A stretch of 64,000 nt of DNA from Heteronotia binoei (Eukaryota). Location: assembly GCF_032191835.1 (NCBI RefSeq), contig NC_083225.1, positions 45,818,001 to 45,882,000 on the forward strand, written 5' to 3'. How positions within the stretch are numbered: the first letter of the stretch is position 1; the number at the start of each line of letters is the position of its first letter. Under the pieces are notes generated by a model. The model was not told the DNA's origin. It searched no databases and saw only the letters and a list, made by a program, of their open reading frames with translations. A program made the position numbers and the translations under genes. Below, in pieces: positions 8,155 through 43,976 of this stretch.

Positions 8155-8341
8155 CGGGGGTGGAATTCTAGCAGGAGCTCCTTTGCATATTAGGCCACAC
8201 ACCTCAATGTAGCCAATCCTGCAAGAGCTTAAAAGGCTCTTTTTTGGAACACCCCATGTGTAGCTAATTCTTGGAGGATTAGCTGCATAAGGGGTGTGTG
8301 GCCTAATATGCAAAGGAGCTCCTGCTAGAATTTCACCCCTG
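8155..8341. mobile_element. Palindromic hAT MITE
   Basis: TIR-extended hairpin ggggtggaattctagcaggagctcctttgcatattaggccacac / reverse; perfect 8-bp TSD ggagttag (8147-8154 / 8342-8349). Confidence 0.92.
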
Positions 8342-8784
8342 GGAGTTAGAGACAGATACTAACAAAATGGTGTCTTTCTGGGGCTCATGGCAACTTCAGT
8401 CAATTCCCTTTTAGAACTAAACATGTAAACTAAAATCCTCTCATAATGCTTCTGGCCATTTTGACTGTGAACCCTCTGCCAGTCTGAGGGCTTCACCACG
8501 TGACTCTATGAAGACGGCTCCTGATCACTCTGGAGCAAAGACCTATTGCTGGCCCAAGGCCTAACAGAGTAGCAACACTAAACATTGTTGCGTCAATAAT
8601 CTTAACTAATAATCTTAACAACATCAGTCCTTCCTGCTTCACAAAGTGCCTGCTGTGGGGAGAGGAGGAGAAAGTTGGGAAGGGTGCTGCTGGTTCTGGT
8701 GGTCCAGATCCTCCCTTAGTTAGCAAAGTGCACAAGGCTTTAATGCAGCAGAGCTTGTATTAGACCTGACCATGTGCTTGCAAG

Positions 8785-13700: not shown

Positions 13701-15908
13701 TTATTGGGGGGGGGGGGCATGATGACAGTCACACAGATGCTGAACCTCAGCATTCCTTTTTTTCTGCAGTTCATTTTTGCTGCCTTTTCCTGTCATATTC
13801 ATCCTTGTGGCATTTAGCATCAGCATGAGCTTGTGGTGTGATCCAGGGTTTTTTGCCTGGCTTGGTTGTGTTATGGTATACCAAAGAGTATGCACCTCAA
13901 GGTGGCCGTTTTCTGTAAGGGAACTGATCTGACTTCAGCTTTCCATTTCCTTCCCCCTCCTTGCAACCTCTACCTAAGAAAAGTACAATCTTTCTCCACA
14001 GTGTGGACCAAAGCAAGAGGGAAGTGACCTTAGCAGGGTACAATGACACAGAATCCAACCTGCAAAGTGGCAAATTTTTTCCCAGTGGAACTGATCTCTG
14101 CAATTTGGAAAGCAGTTATAATTCTGAGTGATTTCCAGCCCTCACCTGGAGATTGGCAACAATGGTTCCCCTGGAAGAAGTGGCTGGTTTGGATGGTAGA
14201 GTCTATGTATCTGTCTGAGGTCTCACCCCTCCTCAAACCACACCCTCTCCAGACTCCACCTCTCAATCTCCTTCGCAGCAGCAAACAACCAAGCCTAGGG
14301 TAGCCAACCTCCAGATGGAGCCTGAAGATCTGGTATCACAACTGAACTCCAGACAATAGATTTCTCTCCCCATTATGAGCCAAATCCTCACCGCTGATAT
14401 CCAGAAGAGACTTGTGAGCTAACAGATTTTGCTGTTGAGCGCTCCCTTTAACTGCATACCTGTTGGAGCTCAAAACAGGCTTGGGAACTCCAAGGTTGCT
14501 TGAATTTTTCTTAGATTCGAACAGCTCATCAATCTTTAGTTTATTGGCATCTTAATTTGCTCCTAGAACTCAGAGTCCAACCAGCAGCATTTTTAAAAAC
14601 TAATTTAAAGCAAGGGGTAGAAACAAAACTTCAAGTAGTTTGCGAAAAATGAGCAGGTAAGCGTCCAGGTGTCTGGAGTAAGTGCTCATTAGTATCTTCC
14701 AATATCTTTCAGATCTTGAGATAATTAGCCAGTAGTTATTGCAATCAGCATCTCCACTCTAATTTAGTCAGTTCAGTAAAGCTAAAGATAAATCTAAATA
14801 GGACCTAAATAATGAAAATAAAACAGGGTTTGAGAGCAAAACATGCAAATGCTACTAGCCTGACTCCATTTTGCTGAAAGATCCTTGGTTTAGGTTTAAT
14901 AGTAAAATGCTTCCATACCATCTGACCCTATACCTGTTAACTTACCAGAGAGTGTTTCTGCATACAGCAGTATAGATGGGCAGACACACATTATAGTGCA
15001 GTGAGCACTTAACACAGGTGAATGTGTGTTTCTGGTCTCTGCACCTACCAAAGGTGGGGTGATAAAGTTGTTCTCCCCTAGTAAGCACTTTGGCCACTTT
15101 TAAGGGGGTGTTGCTTCATCAAACCACTTTTGGCATACAGGGAGGAACACCAGATGAGAGGCAGACTACCTAGTGAGGCTGCCATCGTGGTCTTTTGTAG
15201 GGGGTGGCAACATGGTGCATTAGAACTAGGCAATAGGAATCTGGGTTCAAATTGCTATCTTTTAGTGGGTTAGAGTGAATGACCATGGCCCTGCCATTCA
15301 TCACAGCCTATTCTACTTCACAGGGTTTTAAAAGAGGGAATAGATCCATCAAACAGGAACTTCCATTTTCAGAGTAAGCCTCTAAATTCCACTGTTAGGA
15401 GGCATCATTAGGGGCTTCTGTGCCTGGTTTATTGACCCTCCAGAGCAACTGATCAACCTCTGCGTGAAACAGGATGCTAAACTGGATTTAACTCTGTGCC
15501 CTAAAAAGACCAAATTGCTGTTTACATTTTGGAAGTTTTTTTTAAAAAGGACACTGTAAAACCCATCCTGAATAGTAATTCTACTCTTTGTGAAATTGTC
15601 TCAGAATATATTTTCATCCATCGATCCATTATGAGGCTTGGTAGAAGGATTCAGATGAAGAGGGAGATTAGCAGCTAAAAGTTTGGGCTCAAATTCAGTG
15701 ATGCATGCAGTTTCGACAAATTATTAAAGATATCTCTGATTTTAAAAATCCCAAACTCTGATTGATCAGCATTCAGTTGTTTTGGGGAGATTTGTGGTCC
15801 TCCAAAGGTCTTTCCATTGAATGAGGACACCCATCACATTCCAGACAGATGTCTTGGGCCAGGAACTGATTTATCGCCTCTCAAGTGTCTGGAAGCAATA
15901 GGTACCTC

Positions 15909-16076
15909 CAGGGGTGGAACTCTAGCAGGAGCTCATTTGCATATTAGGCCACATCCCCAGTGTAGCCAATCCTCCAAGAACTTATTAAAAAGAGCCATGT
16001 AAATTCTTGGAGGATTGGCTACGTTGGGGTGTGTGGCCTAATATGCAAAGGAGCTCCTGCTGGAATTCCACCCCTG
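15909..16076. mobile_element. Palindromic hAT MITE (same family as 8155-8341)
   Basis: caggggtggaa...ttccacccctg; TSD ggtacctc / ggtccctc. Confidence 0.9.
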
Positions 16077-17789
16077 GGTCCCTCTTATTTTGCCAATGTC
16101 TTGAAATAACACCACACAGCGCTGGTGCTGTCCCATTATGTCATTCATAGGAATGAAAGTGTGAATACTGATAATCCATCTGCCACTATATTATCTGGCA
16201 GAATACCAGCTGAATCTTAGAGCTTGAGTTGCTTTTGAGAGGAGAAATGTGAAGATTATAGGAGAGAAAAACAAATAGCTTTTTTTTTTAAAAAAAAGTG
16301 AGAATATTTTACCTTTTTGCTGTTTTCCCAAGGAACAAGAAATGGTCACCTCCTCCTACGCCTGCCTTTTGCTGTGAATGTGTCAGTGATCTCTTTTGAT
16401 TGTATGTGTCCCAAGAGGCTCCTGAGTCAGAAAAGCCAACGGTCACGCCATGTGTGCTGGGTAAATATGGCAGGTACTCTTGAATGCTTTTCTTCTCTCC
16501 AGGGTTGAAGGTCTTCCTTGAACTTTTGGCAGGTCACCCACCCTCCCCTTTGAATCTTTAGCAAGCTTCACTCTTGGGTGTAACCATTTTGATTCACATG
16601 CTAAAACTTTCCACGCTAAAACAGCCACTGTTAGCCGCCTTCCTGACCCATGTCTGTGGTCATGCCCAAGTCTGTGGTGAGCTTTAGAGTTGCTATAGCC
16701 CTGATAGGGCTCAGTATGCTTCATGCCAGTGTGACAAGACAGCAGCAGGCAATGCGCATAGCTTATGTTAATTGTCATCTCCAGGATCTGTCCTGCCAAG
16801 TCCAAAGTGAGCCCCTTCGATACTTATCTGGGAGCTCAGCAGTGGCCCTCACTCACAGCAAAGACACTTGCATGAACTGTCTGTAATTGAAATAAACGAT
16901 ACAATCTGTGAAGACTTTCAATGTAGTTGCATTTCAATATAATGAAAACTTTAGAAGCTCAGTTGAAGAAGATATTTAAGTCGAAGAGACAACCTAACAG
17001 GAAGATGGATTGAAATTTTTATTTGAAATAGCATTTTTGTGCAAGTCAGATATTGGTAACAGCACGGTTCCAGTCCTGAGTCTGCTTTGTTGTTAAAATA
17101 AGAATATTAAAAAGGAAATATATATAAAAAATGAAAGTTTGTTGGATTGGACCAGTCACAGTATTATCAAAGAATCAAATATTGATATTTTCAGTAAAAC
17201 ATTTGGTTTGATATATAGCCCCTTTGTACACAGTAGTTCTAGCTTTCAGAAATTCTTGATGGTTAATATATGGAGGTCGAAATGTTTCAGTTTTTCTCCA
17301 TGGGGTGGAAATTCCTTCTGCTGAGATACAGCTCTGTCATCTTTATGACATATTTCAGATGTTCTGACACATAAGGAGAACAGGGGATTATGTGTTAACC
17401 TGGAGATCATATAAGTGCTGGTTAAAGGTGCCAGAACTCTCCATATTCTACCATAGAGTCCCCCCCAAAACCAGAGCATTGCCCCCCAATGTCCTTGACA
17501 TGCCTATATCACTTCCAGGTCATGTGGGCATGTCATGTTTATTTTCAGTGTTCCTCCCCACTCCTGTTAAATTCACTTTCCATTCCCTGCTGGCAGGTCT
17601 GAGGGACCTGGCAACTCTTTGCTCTTGGTCCTCCATTCACCATTACTAGATGAAACAGTAGCAAGAAAAAAGATGTTGGACAGTAGGAATAGTGGCTACT
17701 CAGTGTGATCACTCCTGACTAGTCTTAAGTATTAGATGACATCCTAGAGTAAATTCTACAATTGGTGAGTGGCTTCAAATGGCTTCATT

Positions 17790-19372
17790 TTTTATTTCTG
17801 CTCCTCTGTTGCCTTGAACTAACAGTGAATCTTAGAAGACCTGTGACATCCCTGATCCTCTGTTCCTTTGAACTGGCAGTGAGGCCTTGGGAAACTGTGT
17901 GTGATGTCAATGTTCCTCTGTTGCCTTGAATTGGCAGTGAGTCCTCAAAGAACTGTGTGTGATGTCCCTGATCCCCTGATGTTGCAGGCTCCTTCCCACT
18001 GCCAACCAGCTGGCCAGTGGGAGGAAACCCTGCCCCAACAATCACCATGCACCTTTAAATCTTGGCAGGTTTAGAAGTTTGGAAACGGCTTGTTTTGGAA
18101 GGAGTGTCCCTTTAAATCTCAGTAGAAGGAAAGCTGGACAGGGGTGGGGTGAGAAGGCAGAGCCATGTGGCTCTTCCCAGTGAGTGTGTGAAGTTGTGAG
18201 AAACTAAGAGAGCACAGTCCCTCCATTTGTTTTGCAGTTGTTTCAGAAGACATTTGCATAGTGAAACAGAAAAGAATATAGAACCTGATTATGGGATGGA
18301 GGAAAACTCCACCCCTTAGACTGCTTTGTTCTTTACTTTCATTTTCTTGAGTTAGTCTGAAGAAGTTGGTTGAAATACAGTGGACTGTTACATTCAGCAA
18401 CTCCTGTGAATAAATTCTCCCAGTGAGCTCATATCACAAAAGTACAGGATTGCAAACTGTGTTTATTATGGCTTCTTTGCATGTGTGTGCATGTGACCCT
18501 TAATAAAGCCATGGCAAGGGACTTGTGGGGTATGACAACTTTCACCCTCCTTTAGTGGGAGTGCCTAGATGGGGAAGCCTTTGAAAATAAAAAAGAGTAT
18601 GAGGAAATGAAGACTATATTCAGGGGAACTGCACTGCTGTATTATTTTTAGGGAATGGGAAAGTCTCCTGGCCCTACCCCAAAGTCTCCAGGCTACACCC
18701 TCAAAGTCCCCAAGTATTTCCTGAGTTGGACCTGGCAGCCTTGAATTGGCAGTGAGGCCTTGGAGACCTGTCTGATGTCACTGCTCCTCTGTTGCCTCGA
18801 ACTGGCATTGAGGTCCTGGAGACCTGTGTGTAATGTCCCTGTTCTTCTCTTGCCTTGAACTGGTAGTGAGGCATTGTGGACTTGTGTGTGATGTTCCTCC
18901 TCCTGTTGCCTTGAACGAGCACTAAGGCCCTGCAGACCTGACTGTGATGTCCCTGTTCCTCTGTTGGCCCAAACTGACAGTGAGTCCTTGGGAACCTGTG
19001 CGTGATGTCCCTGTTCCTCTGTTGCCTTGAACTGGCAATGAGGCCCTGGAGACCTTGCTCTTCCTTTGCCTTAAATTCACAGTGAGACCTTGGAGACCTG
19101 CCCATGATGTTCATGCTCCTTTGTTGCCAATGAGCAGTGTTCCCTCTAAGCTTAGTGTGAGCTACCTCACAGCTTTTTAGCCTCCGGCTCACACATTTTT
19201 GTCTTAGCTCAGGAAGGATGACCCCAGAGCACAATGATTTATGCAGTAGCTCACAACTTTAATGCTAGTAGCTCACAAAGTAGACTTTTTGCTCACAAGA
19301 CTCTGCAGCTAAGAGGGAACATTGCCAGTGAGTCCTTGGGGGCATGTGTGTGATGTCCCTGCTCCTGTGTAG
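17790..19372. repeat. ~58-bp minisatellite, about 12-13 degenerate units, split by two insertions
   Basis: Unit approx. ctgttcctctgttgccttgaactggcagtgaggccttggagacctgtgtgtgatgtcc at 17790-17980, 18740-19134 and 19325-19372. Confidence 0.85.
19135..19324. mobile_element. hAT MITE inside the minisatellite
   Basis: TIRs cagtgttccctct / agagggaacattg; 8-bp TSD ccaatgag / ccagtgag. Confidence 0.9.
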
Positions 19373-19855: not shown

Positions 19856-20362
19856 CAGGCAGTGCCACCCTTAGGATGCGTGGCACCCCAGGCAGGCTGT
19901 CTGCCTGCTCCCCCCCTCGCTGCTGCTGCCCCCACCCATTCTCTGCAGCAGTGCAACATGGCATCACGCTCCATCACCCACCGCCCGGTGTGACCAGAGG
20001 AGCGCCATGATAAGACTCAGTCCTACTTGCTTCACAAGGGCCTGGGCTTTTTCTAAGTTGTTCGAAGAGCACATTTGAGGAGGCTCCTCCAGTGTGCTCT
20101 TCAAACAACTTAGAAGAAGCCCAGGCCCTTGTGAAGTAGGTAGGGCCGAGCCTCGTCACTCCTCTAATCGCGTGTGTTTGGGGGGAACGGAACATGGTAC
20201 GGTCCTGCACTGTGCTGGGGAAGGGAGGGGAGGTGGCGGATGGTGGTGGCAGTGGGGGGAGACAAACAGGAAATTGTCTTGGTTGGGGGGAGCCCAATTT
20301 GTTACCACCCTTCCCGGCACCCTAGGCAATTGCCTAGTTTGCCTAGTGGGCAAGCCAGCCCT
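19856..20362. mobile_element. MER45-like hAT non-autonomous element
   Basis: ggcaccccaggca 5' motif and ggcaccctaggcaattgcctagtttgcctagtgg...gccagccct 3' end shared with 2082-2251. Confidence 0.55.
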
Positions 20363-20378
20363 ATATACAGCCTGGCAC

Positions 20379-21010
20379 TGTTGCTCTACCTGGGGTTTCC
20401 AGGATCCACAGATACAGTGACAATGATCACACCAATAGGTACAGAGGTAAGGTCTACAAACCATTCTGGAATCAGAGGTCAAACATCCAGTCCAAGGGTC
20501 AGGGTAAGGAGGGTTGAAGATTCATGGGTCTGGTTCCAGGTTTGGGAACAGGTGCAGGATACAGGGTCTGGGTCCCAGGCTGTAGGAAGAAGCACAGGTT
20601 ACCAGAGACAATGTACAAGGCAGCAAGTCAGGGTAGAGCTCTATTTGCTAGGCAAGTCAGCTTTACAGAGGTGTGGCAAGCAAGGTAGCTTCCACAATGA
20701 GTTTTGCTCAGCATGTTCCTTTTATCTGCTTTCTTTGCTGACTCATCCCCTAAGACCCAGATGGACTTCTTACAGTTGTGTTCACCTTCCTACAGGTGCA
20801 GGTGTTTACTGTTTTCATATCAGCCTGTCAGTCCTGGCAAGGACTCCACTCCAGGAATTAACAATGATCATTGCTGAGAAAACAGATGAGTGCATCTGCC
20901 TTCTCTCTAGCAATTTCAGCACTCTTTCTTCTATGCTCTGCTGGTTCCTGATGCTTCCCCTGTTGGGTCTGCTGCTGGACCCGGCTGCTCAGATAGGAAT
21001 TCCATCAGTG
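20379..21010 (-). mobile_element. Possible solo LTR (Gypsy-like)
   Basis: Repetitive ggtcag/ggtccag-rich segment followed by ccttttat (minus-strand TATA-like) and tgactca. No matching TSD found. Confidence 0.3.
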
Positions 21011-21448
21011 CGTGGCTCAATTCTTCTGATTCCTCCAAGATGAGGAATTCAATTCAATTCAATAACCGCTATTGGCATGCTATTGAACATAACAAGGAAT
21101 CAATCCATCCATCAAATGGCAATTTGCAAATGCATTAAGTGCCTAAGGAGGAGGAAGTGGCAGGTGGCTGGCTCATGACACCTACCTTCTTCCTGGTTGT
21201 AGGCATAAAGAACGCAAGAGAACTTGATTCCCTTTGGATTGCCATGAGCAGCACACTCTTTCTTAATGGAATTCCAAATTACTGCCCCTTAGCTCTGAAG
21301 TGTGGGTTTGTCCTATATTTTGGAAAAGACATGCCCATGTTTCCATTTTGTTCTGTCTCTCTGTTAGAATTTCTCTTCTTTCATTAATATTTAATATCCA
21401 TGCCTTCTGTGGGTTGGTATAATGCATTCTCCTCCTGAGTCTCCTTTG

Positions 21449-21660: not shown

Positions 21661-22440
21661 TGCTCATTTTTTATGTTTCTCAGTTGGTATCACTGGCTGC
21701 CAGCCTTCAGGTGGGGCCTGGAGATCTCCTGGTGTTGTGGCCATGAGGTGGGAGGGGGTTGGGAAAGCTACTTATAGAGTGAAGAATATCCTAGGGCTGC
21801 CACGACAATGTTGGAAAATACCTGGAGACTTTGGGGGTAGATTGAGGAGAGGGCAGGGCCTCAGTATGGTACAATGTCATAGCAGCCATTTTCTCCAGGG
21901 AAGCTGACCTCTGGAGGTGGAGATCCATTGTAAAAGCAGATCTCCAGGCCTCACCTGGAGGCTGGCAACCCTAGTTCCAGTCCTCCACTCTGGCCTTCCT
22001 TATAGATTCTTTATATCCTAACCTCCCACAATCAAAATGGGAGACAAAAAGCTTTAAAATGAATATTAGCAGCATGTAAACTCTGTGCTCCATAAAGGTT
22101 AGACATAAATCTGTATTTATATGTGAGGTAAACTGTGACTCCTGCTTTTTTAGATTTTTGGCTTGACAGACATGGCATAGATGGAGATGAGCAACAAAAT
22201 TTAATAAGATAAATTTGATGTGTGGCTAGCATACATAAAGTAAAGCTAGCTCTCAAATGAAGTAAATAACCTCTGAGGGGAAATTTGATTTCCCTTTTCT
22301 CGGAATAGATTACCTCAACAGACCTGCCCTTTCCCCACACAGAGCATCTTTCCACAGAACCTATGGTTAGGAATGATAGGCCCTTAACAAGATGCTTGTC
22401 ACACAAAAATAAGTTTTCTTCCCTAAGCCAACTCCCAAAC

Positions 22441-23315
22441 CCTAACTCTCTCTCTCGGCTTGACTTCGCGAACGAAGATTTAAGAAAGGTGCAGTAGTCC
22501 ACGTCTGTTGCAGGCTCGCTGGTGGCTGACAAGACCAATGCGGGACAGGCAGGTCCGGCCACAAAGGCTGCAGGGAAAAGTCTGATTTGGGGTTGATGCT
22601 GTAGCAGTACGATTCTTCCTCAATCTCCTTTTGTCCTCAAGACCAGCTATGCGTGCGTTCTCAAAGGAAGAGACAGCCTGGTGGATGGTGTGCCTCCATG
22701 CTTTGCAATCTGAGGCTAGGTCAGACCACTGGTGATGGTTAATGCAACAGGTACCAAGGGATTTCTTCAAGGAGTCCTTGTACCTCTTCTTTGGTGCCCC
22801 TCTATTTCGATGGCCGTTGGAAAGTTTGCCATACAGGGCAATCTTGGGAAGGCGGTGGTTTTCCATCCTGGAGATATGCCCTGCCCAGCGCAGCTGCGTC
22901 TTCAACAGCAATGCCTCGATGCTTGTAACCTCTGTCCGCTTGAGGACTTCAGTGTTGGTCACAAAGTCACTCCAGTGGATGTTGAGGATGGTGCAAAGGC
23001 AGCGCTGATGAAAGCGCTCAAGGAGTCGCAGGTGATGACGGTATAACACCCACGATTCGGAGCCGTAGATGAGGGTTGTCATCACAACCGCTTTGTAAAC
23101 ATTGATCTTTGTGCCTTTTTTCAGATGCTTGTTGCTCCACACTCTTTTATGCAGTTGGCCAAATGCACGGTTTGCCTTTGCCAGCCTATTGTCGATCTCC
23201 TTGTCGATCTTGGCATCTGAGGAGATGATGCACCCCAGGTAGCTGAACTGCTGGACTGTCTTCAAAACTGATTCACCCACAGTAATACAAAGAGGGTGAT
23301 AATCTTCCTGGGGTG
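22441..23315 (-). mobile_element. RTE (BovB-like) LINE, 3' part, left of the ERV insertion
   Basis: ORF 22480-23280: FSYLGCIIS...DKEIDNRLAKANRAFGQL...WSNKHL...TKINVYKAVVMTTLIYGSESW...QLRWAGHISRM...CGRTCLSRIGLVSHQRAC, typical of the RTE RT C-terminus; short microsatellite-like 3' tail at ~22441-22460. Confidence 0.93.
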
Positions 23316-23834
23316 TGTGGGCATTCAGTTTAAGTACAGAGAAGTACAGAGAGTGTTGGAATGCAGGCTAGAAGACAGAAAGAGATAAGAACTTGGACGG
23401 GATGTTTTGCAGCCTAGTTTGATTTATGTCTCAAAGAAACTTGCTGTTGTTTTTATTGTACGCATGTGTGAGCTACTGTCTCTGGGCAGAATACACAGGG
23501 TAATTAATTGGCTGGTACAGGTGGCATGTTATTAAGTCATGAAAGATATAAAAGGCAGCCCTCGATATTGGGAGGGGTTCTTCTTTTGTAGCGTCTTTGG
23601 TCTTTTGTCTTTTGTAAGGCTCTTTGGAGGAACTAAGAATGTGCCAAGAAGATAATAAAGAGTTTTTGAGTTTTGAAGAAGCTTCTGACTGATTTGCGCA
23701 GCACTAGATAACTTTTTCCAGGCGCCTCCTTGTGTGCATGTGTGTGTGTGTTTTTCTTTTGGTGTAAATCTTTCTCTCATCACCAGTGCGTGGGCTGGAC
23801 CTACACACTCGGTCCCAGCTTCTGCATTACGACA
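23316..23834 (+). repeat. 5' LTR (519 bp) with TATAAAA 23547-23553 and AATAAA 23654-23659
   Basis: Direct repeat of 27748-28266; begins TGTGGG and ends CGACA; followed by the PBS. Confidence 0.97.
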
Positions 23835-23836
23835 TT

Positions 23837-23857
23837 TGGTGCCCCTCAGGGAGGCTC
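23837..23857 (+). promoter_or_regulatory. Retroviral primer binding site TGGTGCCCCTCAGGGAGGCTC
   Basis: Starts with TGG two bases after the 5' LTR end, the canonical PBS position. The cognate tRNA is uncertain (elongator Met-like or decayed Lys). Confidence 0.8.
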
Positions 23858-24007
23858 AGAAGAGATAGCATGACAAGATAACCTGATTTATTGATCATCA
23901 CTCACCTCCCGCCCGGCGAGGGCCAACGACGTCGAACTTCACCTGGCCAAGGTCTCAACGGGGTGAGTTGGCTTGTCAAGTTAGACCACACACACACTGT
24001 AGTGAAG

Positions 24008-25096
24008 ATGGGGTCTACGTTATGTGCTGCTCAGGCTAATTTAGTGCTTGAAAATCACTCCACTCCGCTTCAAAGACATTTTATTCATCCGGACAAGGAT
24101 CCCGACAGTGGGAGTGATTTGTCAAGTAAAGAGCACACAGACCCTGAAAAAATGGGTTGTTCCTTATCAGCTGGCCAAGCCAGCCTCAGAAAATATTTAC
24201 ACTGTCTTCTTTCCAAAGAAGGACTTGTTGTTAGAAAATCTGATGTTTCTGATTTGGTGAAATCTATTACAGATATTTGTCTGTGGGTTCCTGAGAGTAA
24301 AACTTTAACAATACAAGACTGGCAAAAAATAGGGAATGCTTTTCAGGATCATCCAAAAATCACAGCCAAAGTTCTGTGCACCTGGGGCAAAGTAAAAGCT
24401 TGTTTAGAAGGGCTTAAGCCTACCAACATTCTATTTAATCAGCAGACAGAGGTTGGAGCAATGCTTTCTGGAGCCTTACCTCAGATTCTGCTACCATCGA
24501 CTTCAGAGTTTTGTGTTACATCTTCTGGCTGTGATGAAATTCATCTACCCCCTAAATCACCAGATGGCTCAGAATCGAATGAGCAGCTACTCAACAGCAT
24601 TGCTCTTGTTCCAAAAATGCAGAGGCCAGCACAATTAACTACAAATCTCCAAGCTGCTGTGCTGAAGGAGGGGGGTGAAAATATTCGAGGAAGCCCAAAT
24701 ACAGAACATCAAGGCCAAACTGAAGTTGTTTTTCCAGAAGGCTCATGTGAGGGAGGACAGCTAGCTGTTTGTGGCAGATTTGATACATTCCAGAACACAA
24801 GCCAAGATGCTACAGAACCCTATGCTGAATCTGTTAATGGACTTATGAGGGCAGTGCAGAGGCAGATTGACAGTGCTGGGGCTGGAAAGCAATTGGCTTT
24901 TGAAAATGCTAATGAGGATTGCAAAGCAGCTTTGACACCTATCTACAGCAATCCCACCACTGATATTCAATCTATGCTCAAAGTGTGCCACAGTGTGGGG
25001 TTTTGCCTCCTGTTGGCTGCAGTTTTAGCTGCTCAAGGATCATTAAATCCAGCAGTGTCATTACATGCCCTGCCTATACACTGGAAATATGGATGA
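24008..25096 (+). CDS. gag: Open, internally deleted ERV gag ORF (matrix-like region plus capsid C-terminal part; no NC zinc knuckles)
   Basis: From ATG 24152, MGCSLSAGQASLRKYLHCLLSKEGLVVRKSDVSDLVKSITDICLWVPESKTLTIQDWQKIG resembles betaretroviral matrix (LxxxLxxxGxxV...CPWFPxxGTxxxxxWxxxG). QDATEPYAESVNGLMRAVQRQI...QLAFENANEDCKAAL resembles the major homology region and CA-CTD. A second in-frame ATG lies upstream at 24008. Confidence 0.85.
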   Translation: MGSTLCAAQANLVLENHSTPLQRHFIHPDKDPDSGSDLSSKEHTDPEKMGCSLSAGQASLRKYLHCLLSKEGLVVRKSDVSDLVKSITDICLWVPESKTLTIQDWQKIGNAFQDHPKITAKVLCTWGKVKACLEGLKPTNILFNQQTEVGAMLSGALPQILLPSTSEFCVTSSGCDEIHLPPKSPDGSESNEQLLNSIALVPKMQRPAQLTTNLQAAVLKEGGENIRGSPNTEHQGQTEVVFPEGSCEGGQLAVCGRFDTFQNTSQDATEPYAESVNGLMRAVQRQIDSAGAGKQLAFENANEDCKAALTPIYSNPTTDIQSMLKVCHSVGFCLLLAAVLAAQGSLNPAVSLHALPIHWKYG

Positions 25097-26935
25097 CATT
25101 CTGCTGGCTGGAAGTGGACATTAAGTCATTATGTGGATTTTTTTTTAGTAACAAGTGTTTCAAGAATATGGCCTTATGATTGCACCAGAAAAGATTCAAC
25201 GTCAAAGTCCTTATATGTATTTAAGGCACAAGCTTTCCACAGCTTCATTAATTCCAGTTTTTCTACAAGTACAGCTTTTAAAGACATTGACAGTTATACA
25301 ATTACAAAGTACACTGGGAAATATTAATTGGGCTAGGCCTTCCTAGCGTTTACAACCATGGAACTGTCACCTTTATTTTTAGCACTTGCTGGACATTCAT
25401 CTCCTGCAGAAAAGATTGAAGTCTACCTTTGAAGAAATTGCTGTCGTGGAATGGATTCATCTACCACATACTTTTTAAAAGAACTTGTACTCAAAGCTTA
25501 TAGCAATCTCTGACTTGTTTTTTAAATCCAGAAGTAATCCAATCCAGTTAACAGGAAGAGATATTAATGTTGTTTATTTTCCCTTTTCACAGGTTGTTGC
25601 AGACTGCTTCAGAGTTCCAAATAGCTTTTGAGGGTTTTCTGGGAACAATTCTTTGTAACACCCCCCCAAAGATAAATGTTTGTTGTTGTTTGTCCAAATG
25701 TCTTACTAACTAATAGCTTGTTTTTTCCATACCATTTGCAAGATGTGTTAACTCTTTTTACAGATGGATCTCCAGAGTGTGGGAAGTGAACTTTACTGAT
25801 TTACAGTCATCAGCCCAGTGGTCAAAATTGGCTGCTGTAATTTTAGCATTTCAGTTGTTTAAAAATAATGATTTTACTCTTGTAGTAGATACTTAATATG
25901 TGTTCTGATTAATGATGCATTTACTTTTGTTTTATTTGGTTTCATCTATTGACAAAGAGTTGTATGAAATGTTTTGTCAGTGCAGTTTTTATTACAGGAA
26001 AGAAGAGCTTTCTGTTTTGTCACGCACATTCGTTTCTACTCTGGTCTACCAGGGATGTTGGTAAAAGAAAATGCACATGCAGATGCATCTCTTCAGAATA
26101 ATGTTTTTTCCTTATTTGACAATCCTATTCAGTCACATGCTGCATTCCATCAGTCTGCAAAGACCTTGCACAGAATGTTTTTCACCTCGATGTTACAAGC
26201 AAGAGACATTGTATCTGTGTGTTTTTCTTATTGTAAGACTTCTATTAGCTTTCTTTTGATGCAGTGAATTTTCAAGAAGCTCAGGCCAACCAGGTTTGGC
26301 AAATTGGATGTGATTCCTGTGTCAGCATTAGCTCCTTTCAACACATTGCATCTTACAGTAAACACATCTTTGGGTATTATCTGGACTAAAGAAGAAACAT
26401 CATGTCATGTTATTCAACATTGTATTTGAGCTTTTGCAGTTATGGAGGCCAGGATGTTTAGAAATGGACAATGTGCCTAGCTATGTTTCTACAGCATTTG
26501 CAGATTTTTGTCAATTGTGGGGAACAAAATTAACTCATGCTATTCCTTTCAATTCAACAGGTCAAGCTATTGTGGAGAGAGCTCATTTGATCTTTAAATC
26601 GCTATTGTATTGCCAGACGGAGGGGAAAGAGATTCCAACAGCAGCTATCCCCACAGTCATGGCTAAAGTGCTTTGTGCATTAAATTTTTGTTTATTTCCC
26701 ATAACAGGGTCTCATATTCCTGTTGAGCTTTATTTTAGGTCAGAAGAACAACTGTCTAGACCACTTGTCACCTATCAGAAGTTTCCTTATCCTGAATGGA
26801 AAGGTCCTGTCCTCCTGATCACCTGGGGAAGAGAATATATTGTAGTAGCATTAAAGAAAGCACTTCTATGGATTCCCCCTACGTGGCAGGGTGTTCTATG
26901 GATCCCTGCTTGATGTGTCAAACCATGGCGTAAAG
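25086..26935 (+). pseudogene. pol: Degenerate ERV pol: RT C-terminal half, RNase H, integrase (many stops and frameshifts)
   Basis: (N)MDDILLA at 25086; GLMIAPEKIQRQSPYMYL; LGNINWARP; RNase H FTDGS at ~25757; integrase HAAFH...C..C zinc finger; MDN...IVERAH with 35 residues between D and E; WKGP...TWGR C-terminal motif. The pieces lie in different frames. Confidence 0.92.
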
Positions 26936-27747
26936 AATTTGGATTGTTTTTGTAATCTCAATGTTAAGAGTAACAGTTGGAGATGGAAATGTAATTCTGA
27001 AATCAAAGACAAACGTGGAAACAACTGAAAATTATAGTTATGGTTTGAAAGATGGTATATTTTTGTTTGTAAACATAGTGCTTATAAGGTTTTGTTTTCT
27101 TATTAGAGAAGCAAATGTACTCTAATTGCTCTTAGTTCTTATGACATGTATACTGTTAAGCATTCTGATATTATGGTATCATATAATCCTCACACACACA
27201 TATATATGTATAAGCAAGCACTGAATAAGTTACAGATAGTATTATTGGATATTATAAGTTTTTATTCTTACTATGATTTTTGTTAGTAATGATTTGATAT
27301 TGTTAACCATTTCTAAAGATATAGAACTATTTACTAATGCTTTAAAAATAGCTATTGCTGCTTTGCTGATTGAAATGAATTTTGTAATGAATACTGTTTT
27401 TTAGAATTGTCTTGGTTTAGATTTCTTACTTTTATAGAATGAGGTTTTGTATCTTTTTAAATCAATCTTGTTGTTTTTATATAAGTGAATCAAGGGTTAT
27501 AGAGGAAGCCATGGTTAAAATATGATCCTGGTTTCAAAATTGGGAGTAGTTGGGAAATTTTGTAATGGCAGTGATTATGATATTCATATTATTAATAGCT
27601 TGTTTTTATATTCAATGTATTCCTTCATTAATCAATGTATTTAGGTTATGTAGTTAATGTTTTCCTTTAGCCTTAATAGTTGACAATTATTCCAACAAAA
27701 ATATCAAACACTTCCACTAAAGATAAAATAAATAAAAACAGAGGAGA

Positions 27748-28266
27748 TGTGGGCATTCAGTTTAAGTACAGAGAAGTACAGAGAGTGTTGGAATGCAGGC
27801 TAGAAGACAGAAAGAGATAAGAACTTGGACGGGATGTTTTGCAGCCTAGTTTGATTTATGTCTCAAAGAAACTTGCTGTTGTTTTTATTGTACGCATGTG
27901 TGAGCTACTGTCTCTGGGCAGAATACACAGGGTAATTAATTGGCTGGTACAGGTGGCATGTTATTAAGTCATGAAAGATATAAAAGGCAGCCCTCGATAT
28001 TGGGAGGGGTTCTTCTTTTGTAGCGTCTTTGGTCTTTTGTCTTTTGTAAGGCTCTTTGGAGGAACTAAGAATGTGCCAAGAAGATAATAAAGAGTTTTTG
28101 AGTTTTGAAGAAGCTTCTGACTGATTTGCGCAGCACTAGATAACTTTTTCCAGGCGCCTCCTTGTGTGCATGTGTGTGTGTGTTTTTCTTTTGGTGTAAA
28201 TCTTTCTCTCATCACCAGTGCGTGGGCTGGACCTACGCACTCGGTCCCAGCTTCTGCATTACGACA
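27748..28266 (+). repeat. 3' LTR (519 bp) with TATAAAA 27979-27985 and AATAAA 28086-28091
   Basis: Same as the 5' LTR except A23805 vs G28237 (compared by eye); preceded by the purine tract aataaaaacagaggaga. Confidence 0.97.
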
Positions 28267-28415
28267 GGGGTGCAGGCTGGTGGAGAACTTCTGTCTTCTT
28301 CAGACTAACTTCTAGGCCGAATAGCTTGGCAGCCTCTGCAAAGCAGGATGTCATATGCTGCAGAGCTGATACCGAGTGGGAGACAAGTGCAGCATCATCA
28401 GCAAACAGTAGCTCT
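28267..28415 (-). mobile_element. Same RTE LINE, 5'-truncated part, right of the ERV insertion
   Basis: Minus strand reads ELLFADDAALVSHSVSALQHMTSCFAEAAKLFGLEVSLKKTEVLHQPAP and joins in frame to QEDYHPLCITVGESVLK at the other side of the ERV. Confidence 0.93.
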
Positions 28416-31400
28416 GGATAAGTTTTTCCATTGTCTTGAAGTGGGCCTTTAGTTGCCTCAAACCCTAACTAAAAAGCAAATAAACACCTAGCTAAGATGA
28501 TGCTCCTTTCCAGAGTCATGAAATCCCTCTCTAAAAGGGAAAAAAAGGTTTTCTTTACTCTTCTTAACCTGAGGCCGGCTCACCCCCACTCATCCCGTGG
28601 TGTTCCATGGGCTCTGATTGGCTGGCAGTCATGGGTTTGCACGAATCCTAAATCACAAAGATTAGTTCAGAGTCCTGGGGAAAAGGTAGGATTTTTAAAA
28701 ATGATTGCCACACTGGAATAACAACCTATTACAGGACAACAAAGATCAGATCCTCTGGAGAAAATGGCTGCTTTGGAGGGTAGGCTGTTTGGCATAATAA
28801 CCAGCTTGAAGTCTCTCCCCTCCCACAAAGCCCATCTTCTTCTGGATCCACTCCCAAATCTCCAGAAAATTTCTAGTCAGGATTTGCCATCTTTAAAGAG
28901 AACTGGCCTGAAGCCTCCTTGATAGGTCTATGACTTAAGTAGGTGAGCATTCCTTATCCAGTGGTTATTATGAATAAGAGCATGTTTCTAATTATTTGTC
29001 AATGTACAAAAATTAGAATTATTACATAATGACTCAGGGGGAATGACAAAAGAATGTTCAGGGTAATGGAACTGTACAGCAGAGCAGTTAGTGTGTGATC
29101 TAATGTTATTGGAACAATTCTAAAGACAAAATAAGACCTCTGTAATTGTTAATGTGTTTATTATCCCAGCTTGACTGAGATAGGAGGCATTAACTAAGAG
29201 AAAGTAACAGAATTGATCCTGAGACCCACTTTAAAAATTTCTAGCTGATCATTTCTATAAAGACCTGCATTTCAGTTCTCATTGCATGTAGTATTGTGAG
29301 ATCTTGAGTTTCTCACAACCTGGGAAAAACAAAACAGAATAATACCCTGCCCTTTACAGAGGCTTAATGAGTTCAGTTGAGCCAAAATGTTTCTGACTAT
29401 TAAGGGAGTACAAAAAGAAAGTTGGCAGATTTATAAGTGAGTTGTGTATCATTTTAAATACTTGAGTCAGATGATTTAGTTCTGGAGTTAAAACTAGTCA
29501 TATTTGGTAATCAATCTGATAGTTGTGCCCCTTGGTTTCAGTGGGACATACATTTTCTCCTTATCCTTCCTCACCCATCCTATTGGGAATAAATTCTCAA
29601 CCCCCAGCCACTGACTGGCTAGGCGGTTCAGGGCTCACTAACTGCTGACGGGTCAGGAGAAAGACTTTATCATACAGAGTTGAGAGATTCTTAAAGCATC
29701 ATCTAGAAGTGGTGTTATTTCTGGGTTCCGATGCAATCCCCTCCCCTCCCCCCACTTTCTTCTACTACATTGGAGATCAAGTGAGGAGAGAACCAGCTCT
29801 GTTTTCTCTTGTCTTTGCTTGCCTGCCAAATAATACAAGTAACTCATTTACCTCTGTCCCCTGCTGAGAATGCAGACGGGCTGGTTGTCTGCCAATCAGG
29901 AGAAAGTGAGGAGTCCTGTCCTTTGACTCTGCATACCTTTAGGCATCCTTGTATTATTGACATTATGGCTACTGAGTTTCTGTACTCTTGATTAAGGGGG
30001 GAGGGAAAGAGAAAGAACCAATTTTCAGTGTAAATAAATGTTTAGCTATGCCTGGTTATTATTATTATTATTAATTTTTTTAAAAAAAATGTTTTAACTA
30101 ATCAGTGATGCAAGTCAAAGAAATCCCAAGTGGGATCATATTATCCTAGATGGTATCTACTTATCTCTGTTTGGACTCTGGGGTAGATTCCTTTCCAATG
30201 TGCTTAGATAGGGGTATCTTTGGACATAAATGTACTGTAGTCCACCACTCAGATATACACAACGTCTCTCACAAAAACAGAGAATAAATTTGCTACAAAA
30301 TTTGGGGGGGAAAATAAAGATTGATATATTTTTCTCTTCACTTACCTTATACCTTTACCTTTCATAATTGAACATATAAACATTATTAGCACACTTCTGG
30401 ATCAGTCTCACCACCATCCATGTTTTAGGTGTCTTCTCAAATTCCAATAAGCAAGCTTACAAAACAGCAAGTGAATGACTTGTCATAAACAATTCCAAAT
30501 ACTTTCTACTTGCTATACCTGTGACAATCATACTATGAGATCTGAGAATATTTTGCATAATTCCACCCCCCCCCCCCTGTAATTGAGGACTTTTCTTAAA
30601 TTGTCTTCTGTGGCAAAACTGATAATCAAAATTACAAAATGTAAGGCTTATAGTGTCGTCTTATTTGTCAGTTTAGAAGTGTTGCATATGTATAGTGTCT
30701 TTCAAAGAGTACTGTCAGCATTTATGATGACTTCCAAGTGGTAGGCACTCTCCCTACCCTCAAAGAACAAATTCATGAGCCCCTAGAAATATGCTAGATA
30801 TTATAATACATAGTTTCAGTATGATACAGTGACAAATGTTGGACTAATCCTGGAAAGATCAGAGCTGTGAGCCTTTGGCAAGCCACTGTTGTGATGGTCC
30901 TGAGAATACTAGGCTAATGCCATTTTACATTTCTGAAAATACCTATGGGGCAGTCTACATAGTTTGCAAAGTGATCAGTTGTAATCTGCTCCTCTCTACA
31001 CTGACATCCCTTTGTGTAATTTCACATCTCTCATACAGTTTTTTCCTGATCAAGCTTTTTCATGAAGCAACTGTCTGTCTTCCTTTCCCATCCCCCAGGA
31101 AGGGGGGGAGAAGTATAAGCATCATGCAGATTTATATGAGAGTAGTCCCATTGACTTCAATACATTTACTCTTGTGTCAATATGGGATGCTCTCAAACAG
31201 CAACTCTGAAACTGGAAAAAAATGGGAGACTAACTAGATACTCTTTCCACAGGAGAGTGAGGGGGGGGGGTTTGGGGGGGAGTTGTCACTCAAAGAGAAC
31301 TCCTCTGGGGGTTCCCGGTCCTGACAGAGTGTTTGGGCGCAGAAACACACAAGCGGTGATTCAAAACCCTGGAGTGAAGATCCACTTATACGCACATCAC

Positions 31401-38769: not shown

Positions 38770-39044
38770 AGAAGAAGATACTGGATTTATATCCTGCCCC
38801 TATATTCTGAATCTCAGAGTGGTAACAATCTCCTTTACCTTCCCCGCCCCCCCCCCCAACAGACACCCTGTGAGGTAGGTGGGGCTGAGAGAGCTCTTAC
38901 AGCAGCTCCCCTTTCAAGGATAACTCCTATGAGAGCTATGGTTGACCCAAGGCCATTCCAGCAACTGCAGGTGGAGTGGGGAATCAAACCCAGTTCTCCC
39001 AGATAAGAGTCCACACACTTACCCATGTCACCAAACCGGCTCTC
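38770..39044 (-). mobile_element. Squam3-like tRNA SINE
   Basis: Near full-length; same family as 43704-43976 and 46581-46812. Confidence 0.85.
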
Positions 39045-39713
39045 TAGTTATAGGGAAAAGTTATAGAATTTTATAGAATGTTAGTTATAGAAGAATGTTG
39101 TTCTCTGATTTTACTCCAACCATGCTAAGAAGATAACATGTATGAACAGCTATTTCCACTGGTAAGTGCCCCTTCCCATACTAACACAACTACTAGTTTG
39201 TTTTCCCACCCCCACACACTTTTAATACATTTTCAGGGGCCAGTACACAAAAGATAAAGCATCATGCAAGAACTTATATAAAAGAAAATGAACTTCAAAA
39301 GAACTTGTCTGGCTGTGACCATGAGTGAGGAGAGATCAGCAGGTGCAGGTGGGCTGGATCTTCAAACCGTGGCACCCCATTTGGGGAATAATCTCCTTGA
39401 AGATGCCCATATTGTACCAACCTCTCACTGGCTAGTAAGAATTTACTTATATAAATACATTTAAACTAATGCTGAGCTGAATTATGTTGGGAAATGTTTT
39501 TGCTCTTAAAGGGGAAGCGAAGAACATTCTTCTTGTCATATTCAGGGAAACATCTGTACTATATACACAATTGCTTCTCTACCAGCATAAAGGTCAAAGA
39601 GTCCTTCAAAGCATCCTGGGAGCTGTAGTTTGACAAGGTTGCAGAGGATTCTCTGCTGGGAATCATTCCATCCCTTTGCAGCTTCTCAGAAAGTGGGCCC
39701 ATGGATTGGGTAG

Positions 39714-40420: not shown

Positions 40421-42233
40421 TTCTGCGAGAGGGAATATATATTAAACACACTTAAGTTTGTAAAGGAGCTACAAGCTCTCTCCAGTCCAAAGATTTCTCC
40501 GTTATCTAACAGGTTTGAAACTTGAAATGTTTATTGTTCTCCACTAGGTGTCGCTAGTCACCTACCACAACTGATAAAAACAGGGTGGTGAGGTGATCCT
40601 TGTGCATAACTTACAGAATTTAAAATACAACTAAAGTTCAGCAAGATGGGTTGTATCTTTTGCACTGGCTTTTAGAAAAATGCTGTGTCTGTGCTCTGTG
40701 ACACAGGGACTGAATTTCCAAGTTTAAACTAAAACAGTCTTACATGGATCTTGTAGAACGGTGAGACCTAAAATATTAGTTCCAACTATTCTGTTGTTAG
40801 GGAAGGAAGCTGCAATGGCTGGTCTTCTGCAAACTGCATCTCAGCTTGCTTCTTATTTCTTTGTATTCAGGATAAAACAGCTGTGTGCATGTGCCCAGTC
40901 TCATGGCTGCCTAAAATGAATTTTCAGTCCTTTAAAAGAATCAAGCCCTGACCCATCTGAACACATATGGGCAATTGTTCTATGAGCACAGCTCTTTCTG
41001 CTCATGGGGAAGGCATCCAAGAGGGAGACAGTGATAGGAATCTAGGGTACCAAGTTCACAGCAGGGATGAAAGATTCCAAAGGAAGTGTGATTGTGCCCT
41101 GGGTCTCTAGCACTTTATGAATGGAGGCAGGCGGCTTTTCTATGCAGTGATTGTGCTCAACTTCAATACTTCCACCTGTGAGTTCCAATGGGTGATTGCC
41201 ACAAAAGTGGTAATTATTTATTATAATCAAATTTTAATTCCATCAGTGTTTAATTTTGTACTGCAGAAATTATACAGCTCCATAACTGTCTTTAAATTCG
41301 ATTCACATAATGGGTGAATAGGCGGGATTTAAGACCTGAACTATACAATACATTTGACCACAAGTCAGGCTGGGGTTACCATGACCTGACTTGTTTTCCC
41401 TGTAGCCCCATGACAGCTGGAGGGAACATACTTCCCGAAGCAGAGCTCAATTTGGATTGGAAAGCAACACAGGAGAAGGAGGAGAGATTCCAGCTTTCTT
41501 CTGCACATTCTTTTCCTAAGTGAAAATGGCTCTGACGGGGTGCTTTTGCCCTGTTGTTGTGGAGTTACGTGGACAGTAGAGTTCCTGCTGATGGCAATCT
41601 TAAACCATCGCATTTCTGTCTAAGCTTGACAACCTCCAAGTACGACCTGTGGGATATTCCTGTCCTCCCTCCTCTTGCTTATTTTGAAAAGCACCCCTTT
41701 AAAAGCCTAAATGCAGCGGGGATCCCTAGTCTCAGAAAATGTGCCTGATACTTGCCCCCAACTCCAAGGAATACGTAATACAAGGAGATCTCGAAGTGGG
41801 CATCCCTTTTCTGCGAGAAGGTTTTTCTGTCTGAAGGTTTTCCCATCCCTCTTACATTAAAGGTTTTCTTTTTTTCGTTTTTAAAATAGTTTTGGAAGTT
41901 TCAGCTATTAACTTGCACCATTTTTAAAGGAAAAACCCACTGTTTTAAAAAGGTGTTTTGTAAAAGAATTTTGTTAAGTTTTTGGCTATTTTTAAATCCT
42001 CACAAGGATATTTAGTGTTATTCTTCACAGAATAGGGTTTTTTCTGTCTTGTTTTCTTTTTTGAGCACTGTTCCTCTACCACACTTTGAACATGAGCTAT
42101 TGTGACTCTGACCTCACCTCTCTGTGTCTTCTTATGGTGTCTCCTCTCTTTTTCTACCCAGCTGTCAGCTAAAAAGAAGACTTTTTTGTACCATGTGGTC
42201 AGATCCTCATGACACAGATTTTTAAAAAACTAA

Positions 42234-42520
42234 GGGCGTTTTCGCACTGACCTTCAAGTGGCGCGACCACCCTCTTCACACCGGAGGATCTGCCCGGATT
42301 TCACACAAGAAGCGCCGGCGCACCCAAAAGAGCCGGCGACTTCCGTCGCAAAAGCCGCTCAAACGTTTTCCTGCTTCTTGGCGGTTTCCGTTTGAGCGGG
42401 TTTCGCGACGGAAGTTGCCGGCTCTTTTGGGTGCGCCGGCACTTCTTGTGCGAAATCCACGCAGATCCTCCGCTGTGAAGAGGGTGGTCGCGCCACTTGA
42501 AGGTCAGTGCGAAAACGTCC
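42234..42520. mobile_element. PIF/Harbinger-type MITE, near-perfect 287-bp palindrome
   Basis: gggcgttttcgcactgaccttcaagtggcgcgaccaccctcttcac... mirrored at the other end; 3-bp TSD TAA on both sides; CpGs intact. Confidence 0.9.
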
Positions 42521-43703
42521 TAACTGAAATAAGTCCAAAAATGCAGACTTTCCTCTTTTCATTCAACCCCTGAAGGTAAACTAAACTAAACGAGGTGCAT
42601 CAGCCAACACCCCACTCTTTCTGCTCTAGTTTTTTCATCGGCTGTCTCTCTCCCCACTTCCCCCTCTCTTTCTCCATAAATGTTACTCTATTGTGGGTCA
42701 CCACTAAGTCCCAGTGAGACCACCAGTCCAGCACATTAGATGGCAGTCGTCACAGAGGCACATCTTGATTTTGGTCCTTTAGGTAATTTCTAGCTGGCAC
42801 TGCTTCAGTCCAGAAAACCATCATCCTTTACTCCTGAGCAGCCTGTCCCAAGGCAATTCATAAGGCAACTGCACAGAATTCAGCCCACTGCCCCTGCCTT
42901 TGAGACGTTTTACTCTCTCACAGCTGTGTGAGAGAAATCTGTTTCTTCCAAAGGGCTCCAGTTATGGGCTCTTGACCAAAGTCACTTGGAGAGGGAGGGG
43001 CTCTAGTGATGGGTTTCCTCCTTACTTTGGGCTCTTCTCTGTCCATCATACTGCTTTCATTCCTCAGAAATCTCCACAAATGGACCACTTTGGCCCAATG
43101 AACTCCCCATTTTGAATCTCCTGTGCCACCAACCAGGCTCGTTGTGTTTAATGGACTCAACACTCCTCTTTGCTTTGTTTCATCCACCCAGCTCTACCTG
43201 TTGAATTATTGACTGTGTTGTTTGGGTTTCTGTACCCCCTCCCATGTCAGGCCCTACAGTTATTTGTGAGCACCATATCTTGGACAATAACTATTGTTAT
43301 ATGGACTCTTTATTGCCTGGAATGATACATCCAGGACCTTGGAAGCAAATTGCTTGTGTATATATTTTTGAAAAACATTTTCTCTTTGTATGTCTTAATT
43401 AATCAAATCAACAATTATTTGTACATGTATGATTGAGTGTGCAGGCCCACTCTCCTGGGTTTGGGAAACTTCTGTCACTTTTTTCTAAATGGAGTTTGAT
43501 TATTGTGCTTTGAAATTGCCCCATTTGACCACCAATTTCCATGCTAAGCTTTGGTTTGTTTTTCATTGCTAGGCAATTGTTTATTTTGCTTTGCCTACAG
43601 CACCAGCTTTTGCATAGAATGCTTGACCTCATGCAAAAAAGAAACCAGAGGGATTCAAGGTCAAGTACCACTAACACAGGCATCCATTTACCCACTCCAG
43701 CAA

Positions 43704-43976
43704 AAGAAGATGACGACATTGGATTTATACCCCACCCTTCACTCAGAGTCTCAAAGCGGCTTACAATCTCTTTTATCTTCTTCCCCCAAAACAGACACCC
43801 TGTGAGGTGGGTGGGGCTGAGACACCTCTCCGAGAAGCTGCGGTTTTAAGGACAGCTCTGTGAGAGCTATGGCTGACCCAAGGCCATTCCAGCAGATGCA
43901 AATGGAGGAGTGGGGAATCAAACCCAGTTCTCCCAGACAAGAGTCCACACACTTAACCACTACACCAAACTGGCTC
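43704..43976 (-). mobile_element. Squam3-like tRNA SINE
   Basis: Minus strand head agagccagtttggtgtagtggttaagtgtgtggactc...gggtttgattccccactcc; 3' tcttct tail. Confidence 0.88.

Follow-up and report, generated by a model that had tools for sequence, protein, structure and literature searches.

Retroelements mobilised by the proteins of others are known from several mammals, among them mouse IAP 1-delta-1, ETn and VL30, the bovine D-type ERVK and koala recKoRV (PMC1331978, PMC4859993, PMC10924933, PMC6112702). Young ends on old middles are reported for three mammalian pairs in the available portions of one of these papers (PMC10924933), and the IAP 1-delta-1 fusion is reported, again in the portions available, to act in cis (PMC6466679, PMC7411935). 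Here we describe a provirus of 4,951 bp (positions 23316-28266) from a gecko, Heteronotia binoei, within a stretch of 64,000 nucleotides (assembly GCF_032191835.1, contig NC_083225.1, positions 45,818,001 to 45,882,000 of the forward strand) that is hereafter called the window and to which all positions refer. This endogenous retrovirus (ERV), which we assign to class II from its gag and pol, was very probably reverse-transcribed and integrated when already dead, using the proteins of a helper. The mechanism class is already established in mouse, cattle and koala, and the gecko element is a reptilian case of it.

Comparison with the described systems shows both likenesses and differences, as far as the available accounts of these systems go. 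Mouse IAP 1-delta-1 is likewise a non-autonomous class II element in which a gag-pol deletion leaves an open fusion frame, and it takes Gag-Pol in trans. As to action in cis, the two are alike only in the frame: the effect is reported for the mouse fusion, whereas in the gecko the open frame is read from the sequence. The mouse element is unlike ours in having one 1.9-kb deletion and in being fused to a large part of Pol, whereas the gecko provirus carries several deletions, a 7-residue stub resembling reverse transcriptase (RT), 6-14% decay and an env remnant. The cattle ERVK[2-1-LTR] D-type elements, koala recKoRV and mouse ETn/MusD share with it near-identical long terminal repeats (LTRs) and leader enclosing an interior that is old and non-coding, and are mobilised by a competent relative, as is proposed here; their interior, however, comes from a different retroelement and their helper is known, whereas the gecko element is one decayed class II genome. 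Mouse VL30 is alike in its size (~5 kb), its stop-ridden gag and pol remnants and its lack of autonomy (PMC4859993). It has many copies with identical LTRs, whereas a single copy with near-identical LTRs lies in the window, and it is further unlike in its MLV-type helper, its 4-bp target site duplications and its lack of both env and an open gag.

Among reptiles, the Python molurus ERV (PyERV) and the beta-related ERVs of the clade Shui are alike in joining a squamate class II gag-pol to a gamma-type env, and the lineage also occurs in turtles (PMC3758190, PMC6001957). No non-autonomous form is described in the available portions of these papers, and PyERV, which stood outside the proteins compared here, is likened by its gene arrangement. 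The element branches at or within the group of the Komodo dragon ERVs, from which it differs in its decay: the Varanus copies show little of it and are 91-93% alike. No non-autonomous ERV or helper/parasite ERV pair of this kind is described in squamates in the portions of the open-access literature that were available, and repeat catalogues may list the family. The initial annotation of the locus had gone further and raised the possibility of an undescribed helper/parasite system in a group whose class II retroviruses are poorly characterised; this has to be tempered, since beta-related ERVs are already known from squamates and turtles (PMC6001957) and such pairs are well described in mammals.

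The provirus and the age of its parts

The provirus is real and shows the expected hallmarks, namely paired TG...CA LTRs, a short target site duplication and a polypurine tract. Sequence comparison confirmed the LTR pair of the initial annotation: the 5' LTR (23316..23834, + strand) and the 3' LTR (27748..28266, +), each of 519 bp, differ at 1/519 positions (A23805/G28237), and identity ends exactly at the LTR bounds. They are flanked by a perfect 6-bp target site duplication, GGGGTG (23310..23315 and 28267..28272). The 5' LTR contains TATAAA at 23547 and AATAAA at 23654, has a CpG observed/expected ratio of 0.41, and is followed after 2 nt by an imperfect primer-binding site (23837..23855, +); the polypurine tract (27729..27747, +; 16/19 purines) adjoins the 3' LTR, and a splice-donor consensus lies 5' of gag (23961..23968, +). 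The sole LTR mismatch is a transition that falls on a CpG site within U5. Divergence per branch is 0.001 (upper 95% limit 0.005), which at assumed rates of 1-2e-9 per site per year corresponds to an age of ~0.5-1 million years, with limits of roughly 0.01-5 million years.

The interior has a very different history. The pol remnant (25089..26930, +) retains the C-terminal part of RT, RNase H and integrase, the connection being deleted, and carries 12 frame changes and 6 stops, a total of 18 lesions in 1,825 nt, in agreement with the many stops and frameshifts first reported. Frame changes lie near 25122, 25163, 25344, 25425, 25590, 25654, 25728, 25778, 25975, 26253, 26303 and 26445 (+), and stops at 25476, 25707, 25894, 25906, 26427 and 26911 (+). 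Eleven of the frame changes come from a frameshift-aware alignment to the Komodo dragon ERV Pol, while the twelfth, a deletion of ~50 codons, was read from tblastn frames and placed by hand; five stops come from the alignment and one, near the end of integrase, was placed by eye. Nucleocapsid, protease and most of the N-terminal half of RT are gone, as had been claimed, and pol picks up within the RT catalytic region. The best PDB match of RT is 7SR6, and the best matches of integrase (E=7e-14 and 2e-12) are read as the integrases of Rous sarcoma virus (RSV) and of what we take, from the entry codes, to be mouse mammary tumour virus (MMTV), the latter named for the first of the two E values. 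Near the integrase C-terminus (26860-26915), ~10 codons are, by eye, apparently duplicated in frame.

Decay of the interior amounts to 0.075 substitutions per site from the stops (95% limits 0.03-0.16) and to 0.06-0.10 from the loss of residues invariant in relatives. At sites shared by Varanus and turtle, 76/291 (26%) are altered, or ~0.14 by the formula used for the invariant residues. These values are 11- to 145-fold the LTR figure. All of the pol relative-rate tests (9/9) were significant, and in the Pol tree the terminal branch of the element measures 0.57, compared with 0.01-0.05 for the Varanus copies, a length inflated by neutral decay at slow sites. Among the changes, G>A (18) and C>T (17) are balanced, and GC>AT changes (38) exceed AT>GC changes (11), a spectrum that does not fit strand-specific editing in one replication round; the interior decayed as double-stranded DNA of the host genome.

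A clock independent of the LTRs is provided by the long interspersed element (LINE) that the provirus interrupts. The 3' part of its ORF2 (22448..23315, - strand; CpG observed/expected 0.51), from a 5'-truncated copy, has neither stop nor frameshift, and its 5' part lies beyond the provirus (28267..28458, -; Pfam RVT_1, E=6e-5). Codon phase is continuous across the provirus once one copy of the target site duplication is discounted, and the LINE is bounded by its own perfect 12-bp target duplication (22436..22447 and 28459..28470). Similarity was found to RVT_1 and to chordate clusters; we presume the LINE to be RTE-type. Positions 22436-28470 are thus a young LINE with a younger ERV nested inside. 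No stop or frameshift is present in its 1,035 nt, compared with ~10 expected at the pol density (P=3e-4), which caps the age of the LINE, hence that of the insertion, at <=0.02-0.04 substitutions per site. This cap lies under most of the interior estimates but overlaps the lower 95% limit from the stops. Since a LINE free of lesions is older than the provirus inside it, the decay predates the insertion even when LTR identity is disregarded, and the claim of a very young insertion with an old coding decay is supported.

The CpG content points the same way. LTR and leader keep 20 CpGs of 41.6 expected, whereas the coding interior keeps 14 of 117.9 (p=9e-5), with a step near the gag ATG at about 24110-24150 (second test, p=0.009). 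The LINE retains 31/67 against 14/118 in the interior (p=1e-5), a comparison in which the starting contents may differ.

The open gag frame

Three features were overlooked in the initial annotation: the deletion of the capsid N-terminal domain, the open gag and the intact-looking LINE around the element. The gag region is a single open frame (23882-25096, +) of 314 or 362 codons depending on the choice of ATG. It includes 48 codons (24008..24151, +) that are in frame with gag, start from an upstream ATG in a strong context and keep their CpGs. The first 12 codons from the ATG at 24008 resemble the element's own gag start (shuffle p=0.005), and a significant match of this segment was found in 0/5 relatives; it may be an old duplication, a helper-derived stub or a native pre-gag frame. 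The matrix domain that follows (24152..24445, +) is of the beta-type p10, has a myristoylation-type start, scores above the Pfam cut-off for Gag_p10 and is 56% identical to the Komodo dragon ERV over 98 residues. Next come the linker and the site of the capsid deletion (24446..24778, +), where the frame stays open and the distal part is unalignable in any frame. The capsid N-terminal domain is present in 5/5 lizard Gag relatives scanned and deleted in the provirus, and no frame of the unalignable middle contained it (4/4 relatives within the shuffle range). The capsid C-terminal domain (24779..25000, +) scores above the cut-off for Gag_p24_C; its major homology region is degenerate, and 4 codons are deleted in frame. 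In the end of the frame (25001..25096, +), where nucleocapsid and protease are deleted, gag is fused in frame to the RT-like stub (25067-25087), whose 7 residues resemble the RT start by eye against a turtle Pol, before the stop at 25094. The ESM Atlas gave generic Gag clusters alone (<=0.90).

Lesions are absent from 942 nt of gag, where 9.3 would be expected at the pol density (P=6e-4; P=0.006 on the alignable parts only, 0.001 when scaled to gag's own decay). Tallied by eye, gag has no frameshifting and 4 in-frame indels, all four of them deletions, as opposed to 12 and 2 in pol (p=0.005). Residues invariant in relatives are nevertheless kept at similar rates in both genes, 39/45 in gag (18/21 in matrix, 21/24 in the capsid C-terminal domain) and 99/122 in pol (p=0.49), and the CpG observed/expected ratio of gag is 0.07. 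A frame that is open beyond chance while its residues decay like those of pol is most simply read as the outcome of selection for translation, not for protein sequence, and we lean slightly towards the view that it was held open by selection for the RNA to be translated in cis. Premature stops in the gag of RSV lead to decay of the unspliced RNA, according to the available portions of PMC2925335, and the cis effect has so far been shown in mouse IAP and RSV.

Several points count against this view. The test of the open frame was post hoc and was made on one copy. The deletion that closes the gag frame, itself a frameshifting one, does not figure in the indel tally; when it is counted, p rises to ~0.02 by hand calculation. 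The unalignable middle could conceal frameshifts that compensate one another. Finally, none of the gag relative-rate tests was significant (0/12), as opposed to 9/9 for pol, so that gag may be somewhat less decayed, whether younger or constrained.

The last point would also suit another explanation, in which host or element makes use of the truncated protein, made up of matrix and the capsid C-terminal domain, for example as a dominant-negative restriction factor directed at related viruses. The frame of 314 or 362 codons, its myristoylation-type start, the LTR promoter and the strong ATG context all accord with such a use. We nevertheless consider it unlikely: invariant residues of gag, those of the major homology region included, are lost at pol-like rates and its CpGs are depleted, a gene co-opted long ago would not be expected to look like a young insertion inside a LINE, and a Gag with dominant-negative action would work against the mobilisation of the element itself.

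Mobilisation and competing explanations

The provirus lacks protease, nucleocapsid, a complete RT and an intact integrase frame, and yet it has integrase-type ends, from which we infer that the proteins of another virus were used. The earlier suggestion that the genome was defective when copied, and so was mobilised in trans, is supported by the data; the helper and a multi-copy family are putative. The strongest competitor for the whole pattern is that an old provirus decayed in place and that its LTRs were lately homogenised by gene conversion, or collapsed in the assembly. Decay in place needs no helper, the primer-binding site is imperfect, no sister copy is seen in the window, and the perfect 6-bp target site duplication is by itself a weak sign of youth, having a probability of 0.19-0.49 even if the insertion is old. 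We judge this history improbable, because the LINE, which must predate the insertion, has none of the 10 lesions expected of it (P=3e-4), keeps a perfect 12-bp duplication and has retained more of its CpGs. Conversion between two old LTRs, moreover, would not restore the CpGs of LTR and leader, and the single LTR difference, a CpG transition, is what is expected after integration.

The lesion-free LINE also argues against assembly indels, that is, against the notion of a young provirus, largely intact, whose pol lesions arose as errors of sequencing or assembly. Frame changes, a typical error of long reads, do make up 12/18 of the lesions. The LTR pair, however, has no indel where 6.8 would be expected at the pol rate (P=0.005), LINE and gag have none either, and the frameshifts lie away from long homopolymers (the longest at these sites measuring 2-5 nt, against a background mode of 2-3 nt). 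Large deletions, stops, the 26% change at conserved sites with its GC>AT bias and the loss of CpGs are not indel errors, and this explanation is very improbable. Equally improbable is damage to a young provirus in one replication round, by deaminase editing and template jumps without long decay: deletions and G>A changes can arise in reverse transcription, and an APOBEC-type signature appears in the available portions of PMC10924933, but the symmetric spectrum (G>A 18, C>T 17, with no strand bias) largely refutes it, as do 12 frame changes and the sparing of LTRs and leader.

Mobilisation of a dead genome by a helper would have run as follows. The ancestor would have been a reptile class II virus close to the Komodo dragon ERV and provided with a gamma-type envelope; the interior resided in the host genome and decayed there. 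A transcript driven by the LTR and carrying the primer-binding site, the leader palindrome and the polypurine tract may then have been packaged, reverse-transcribed and integrated by the Gag-Pol of another, intact retrovirus or ERV. Reverse transcription would have reset both LTRs to identity, and the new copy would have landed in the young LINE. The open gag may have been kept for RNA stability or for co-assembly with the helper Gag. The palindrome (23927..23934, +; 8 nt, CpG-rich) is a candidate dimerisation site, mostly unpaired in folding models.

How the ends stayed young is a separate question. There is an even chance, in our estimation, that a younger virus donated LTR and leader through recombination, as in recKoRV and the bovine D-type elements; the CpG step near 24110-24150 and the second gag-like start hint at a junction. 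The CpG-keeping ends fit equally well with selection on cis-signals in a long-lived parasite family. More tentatively, such a family might have persisted in geckos for tens of millions of years on helpers, with only its cis-signals and an open, meaningless gag frame under selection, a possibility that we rate as rather doubtful. Retroviral leaders may be natively CpG-rich, which weakens the case for a younger donor.

Other observations speak against mobilisation or against a family of mobilised copies. Neither a further match to the LTR or the interior nor a solo LTR occurs in the window; an exact look-up of 4 window proteins in a protein collection gave 0/4, and the closest proteins found, which come from other lizards, are 45-64% identical. 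The leader as a whole folds no more stably than its shuffles (z=-0.12). The primer-binding site fully matches none of the 4 published 18-mers compared, which were taken from the available portions of PMC1084362 and which leave aside the host's own tRNA set; the best, tRNA-Met, agrees at 15/18 positions with a 1-nt bulge and is exact over the first 9, and Lys3 agrees at 13/18. Repeated reverse transcription should tend to restore this site, so that its imperfection counts mildly against many recent rounds; mismatches are also reported in the active bovine ERVK (PMC10924933, in the portions available). A comparison of LTR and leader with plasmids gave no match.

Envelope, relatives and surroundings

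An env remnant of gamma-type follows pol (26925..27690, +), contrary to the statement that env is absent. Its surface subunit is largely deleted and it contains several stops and frame changes. A signal-peptide-like start from the 26925 region (+) was recognised by eye and has no database match, while the transmembrane (TM) part comprises a heptad and immunosuppressive-domain region (27306-27434, +), a CX6CC motif (27448-27474, +; shuffle chance of the motif alone 0.016) and a hydrophobic membrane span (27559-27612, +). With breaks replaced by X, this TM stretch gave 10/10 PDB matches to gamma-type Env TM ectodomains, the best being Syncytin-1 (E=5e-4), and in Pfam it matched TLV_coat at E=0.002, short of the curated cut-off. 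Detection was confined to such targeted reads: Pfam gave a match for 0/3 whole post-pol frames and none for the immunosuppressive-domain stretch alone. The element thus joins a class II gag-pol and a gamma-type env.

The closest named proteins are products of the Varanus komodoensis ERVs (UniRef A0A8D2IRU6, A0A8D2JAS0, A0A8D2IV37 and A0A8D2J6C6), with 62% identity in Pol and 56% in matrix; next come Pogona, Podarcis and Zootoca for Gag, and sea turtles and snakes for Pol. In a Pol tree of 30 rows the element groups with the Varanus copies inside a reptile clade of Komodo dragon, lacertid and turtle class II ERVs, apart from the mammalian betaretroviruses; the tree covers named proteins, and among the unnamed matches left out of it and of the alignments there may be closer relatives. 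A position inside the Varanus group and one beside it are both compatible with the data (approximately unbiased (AU) test, p=0.26). A clade constrained to place the element among mammalian betaretroviruses (SRV-1, SRV-5, prosimian retrovirus, Desmodus ERV and others) was rejected (AU p=1.7e-5), and its Pol is 31% identical to that of SRV-1. As the tree had neither an alpharetrovirus nor a lentivirus outgroup, a sister relation between the reptile clade and betaretroviruses is still conceivable.

Placement in class II follows from Gag_p10 and Gag_p24_C scores above the Pfam cut-offs and from the PDB matches of integrase and RT. A beta-type TM has two cysteines and no immunosuppressive domain, whereas the element has a gamma-type immunosuppressive region and CX6CC. 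A dUTPase-protease region is a feature of Betaretrovirus, and this region is deleted in the present copy. The label of a betaretrovirus-like ERV therefore holds loosely, as far as class II is meant, and fails for the Betaretrovirus clade itself; judged by its proteins, the element is a class II ERV with a gamma-type env and is not to be filed as Betaretrovirus. D-type betaretroviruses have a gamma-type Env, and the env of the element is compatible only with the D-type or the PyERV arrangement (for the envelope context, see the available portions of PMC9967133 and PMC13568524); PyERV, from python, combines a class II gag-pol with a gamma-type env, according to the available portions of its description (PMC3758190). 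The gecko host, together with closeness to a varanid virus, suggests host switching. In the same reptile clade, a full-length Pol of 897 residues from Natator depressus (P0116) represents a cluster of 42 sequences, suggesting that a coding-intact class II ERV family has recently expanded in sea turtles.

Elsewhere in the window, Pfam revealed no credible host gene among 19 other long frames, and Rfam gave one weak match, well short of the family threshold. Two short interspersed elements (SINEs), at about 43703-43979 (-) and 38850-39045 (-), resemble Squam3B, a likeness judged by eye against rows of PMC7983390 whose labels were matched by order. Squam3B is found only in squamates according to the available portions of that paper, and from length and CTT tail the elements are probably a gecko form of it, which supports the initial reading of the host as a lizard. 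Tandem arrays occur at 17799-19370 (degenerate, with a 56-58-bp unit and at least 10 copies in two blocks) and at 56430-57170 (period ~194-202 bp). Short palindromic elements resembling miniature inverted-repeat transposable elements, with 47-51-bp terminal inverted repeats, lie at 8157-8342, 15908-16077 and 44353-44470. Further inverted repeats span 20008-20158 (75-bp arms, 1 nt apart), 42233-42521 (133-bp arms, 23 nt apart) and 45024-46553 (~200-bp arms more than 1 kb apart), a tRNA-Asn-like call at 45015-45085 being possibly a SINE head. A stop-free frame of 291 codons (20168-21040, +) has no Pfam match, overlaps a palindrome and is probably a low-complexity repeat.

The provirus is a sign of recent activity by a class II retrovirus in the germ line of a lizard, and its LTR offers a probe for the helper. 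Were the long-lived parasite family to prove real, translatability would have been conserved while the protein sequence drifted, and a competent class II retrovirus with a gamma-type env, kin to the ERV of monitor lizards, would have been active in the germ line of this lizard during roughly the last million years, perhaps up to the present. Sister copies with an open gag and drifting residues would constitute a natural experiment on what makes non-autonomous ERVs retain a frame that is translated.

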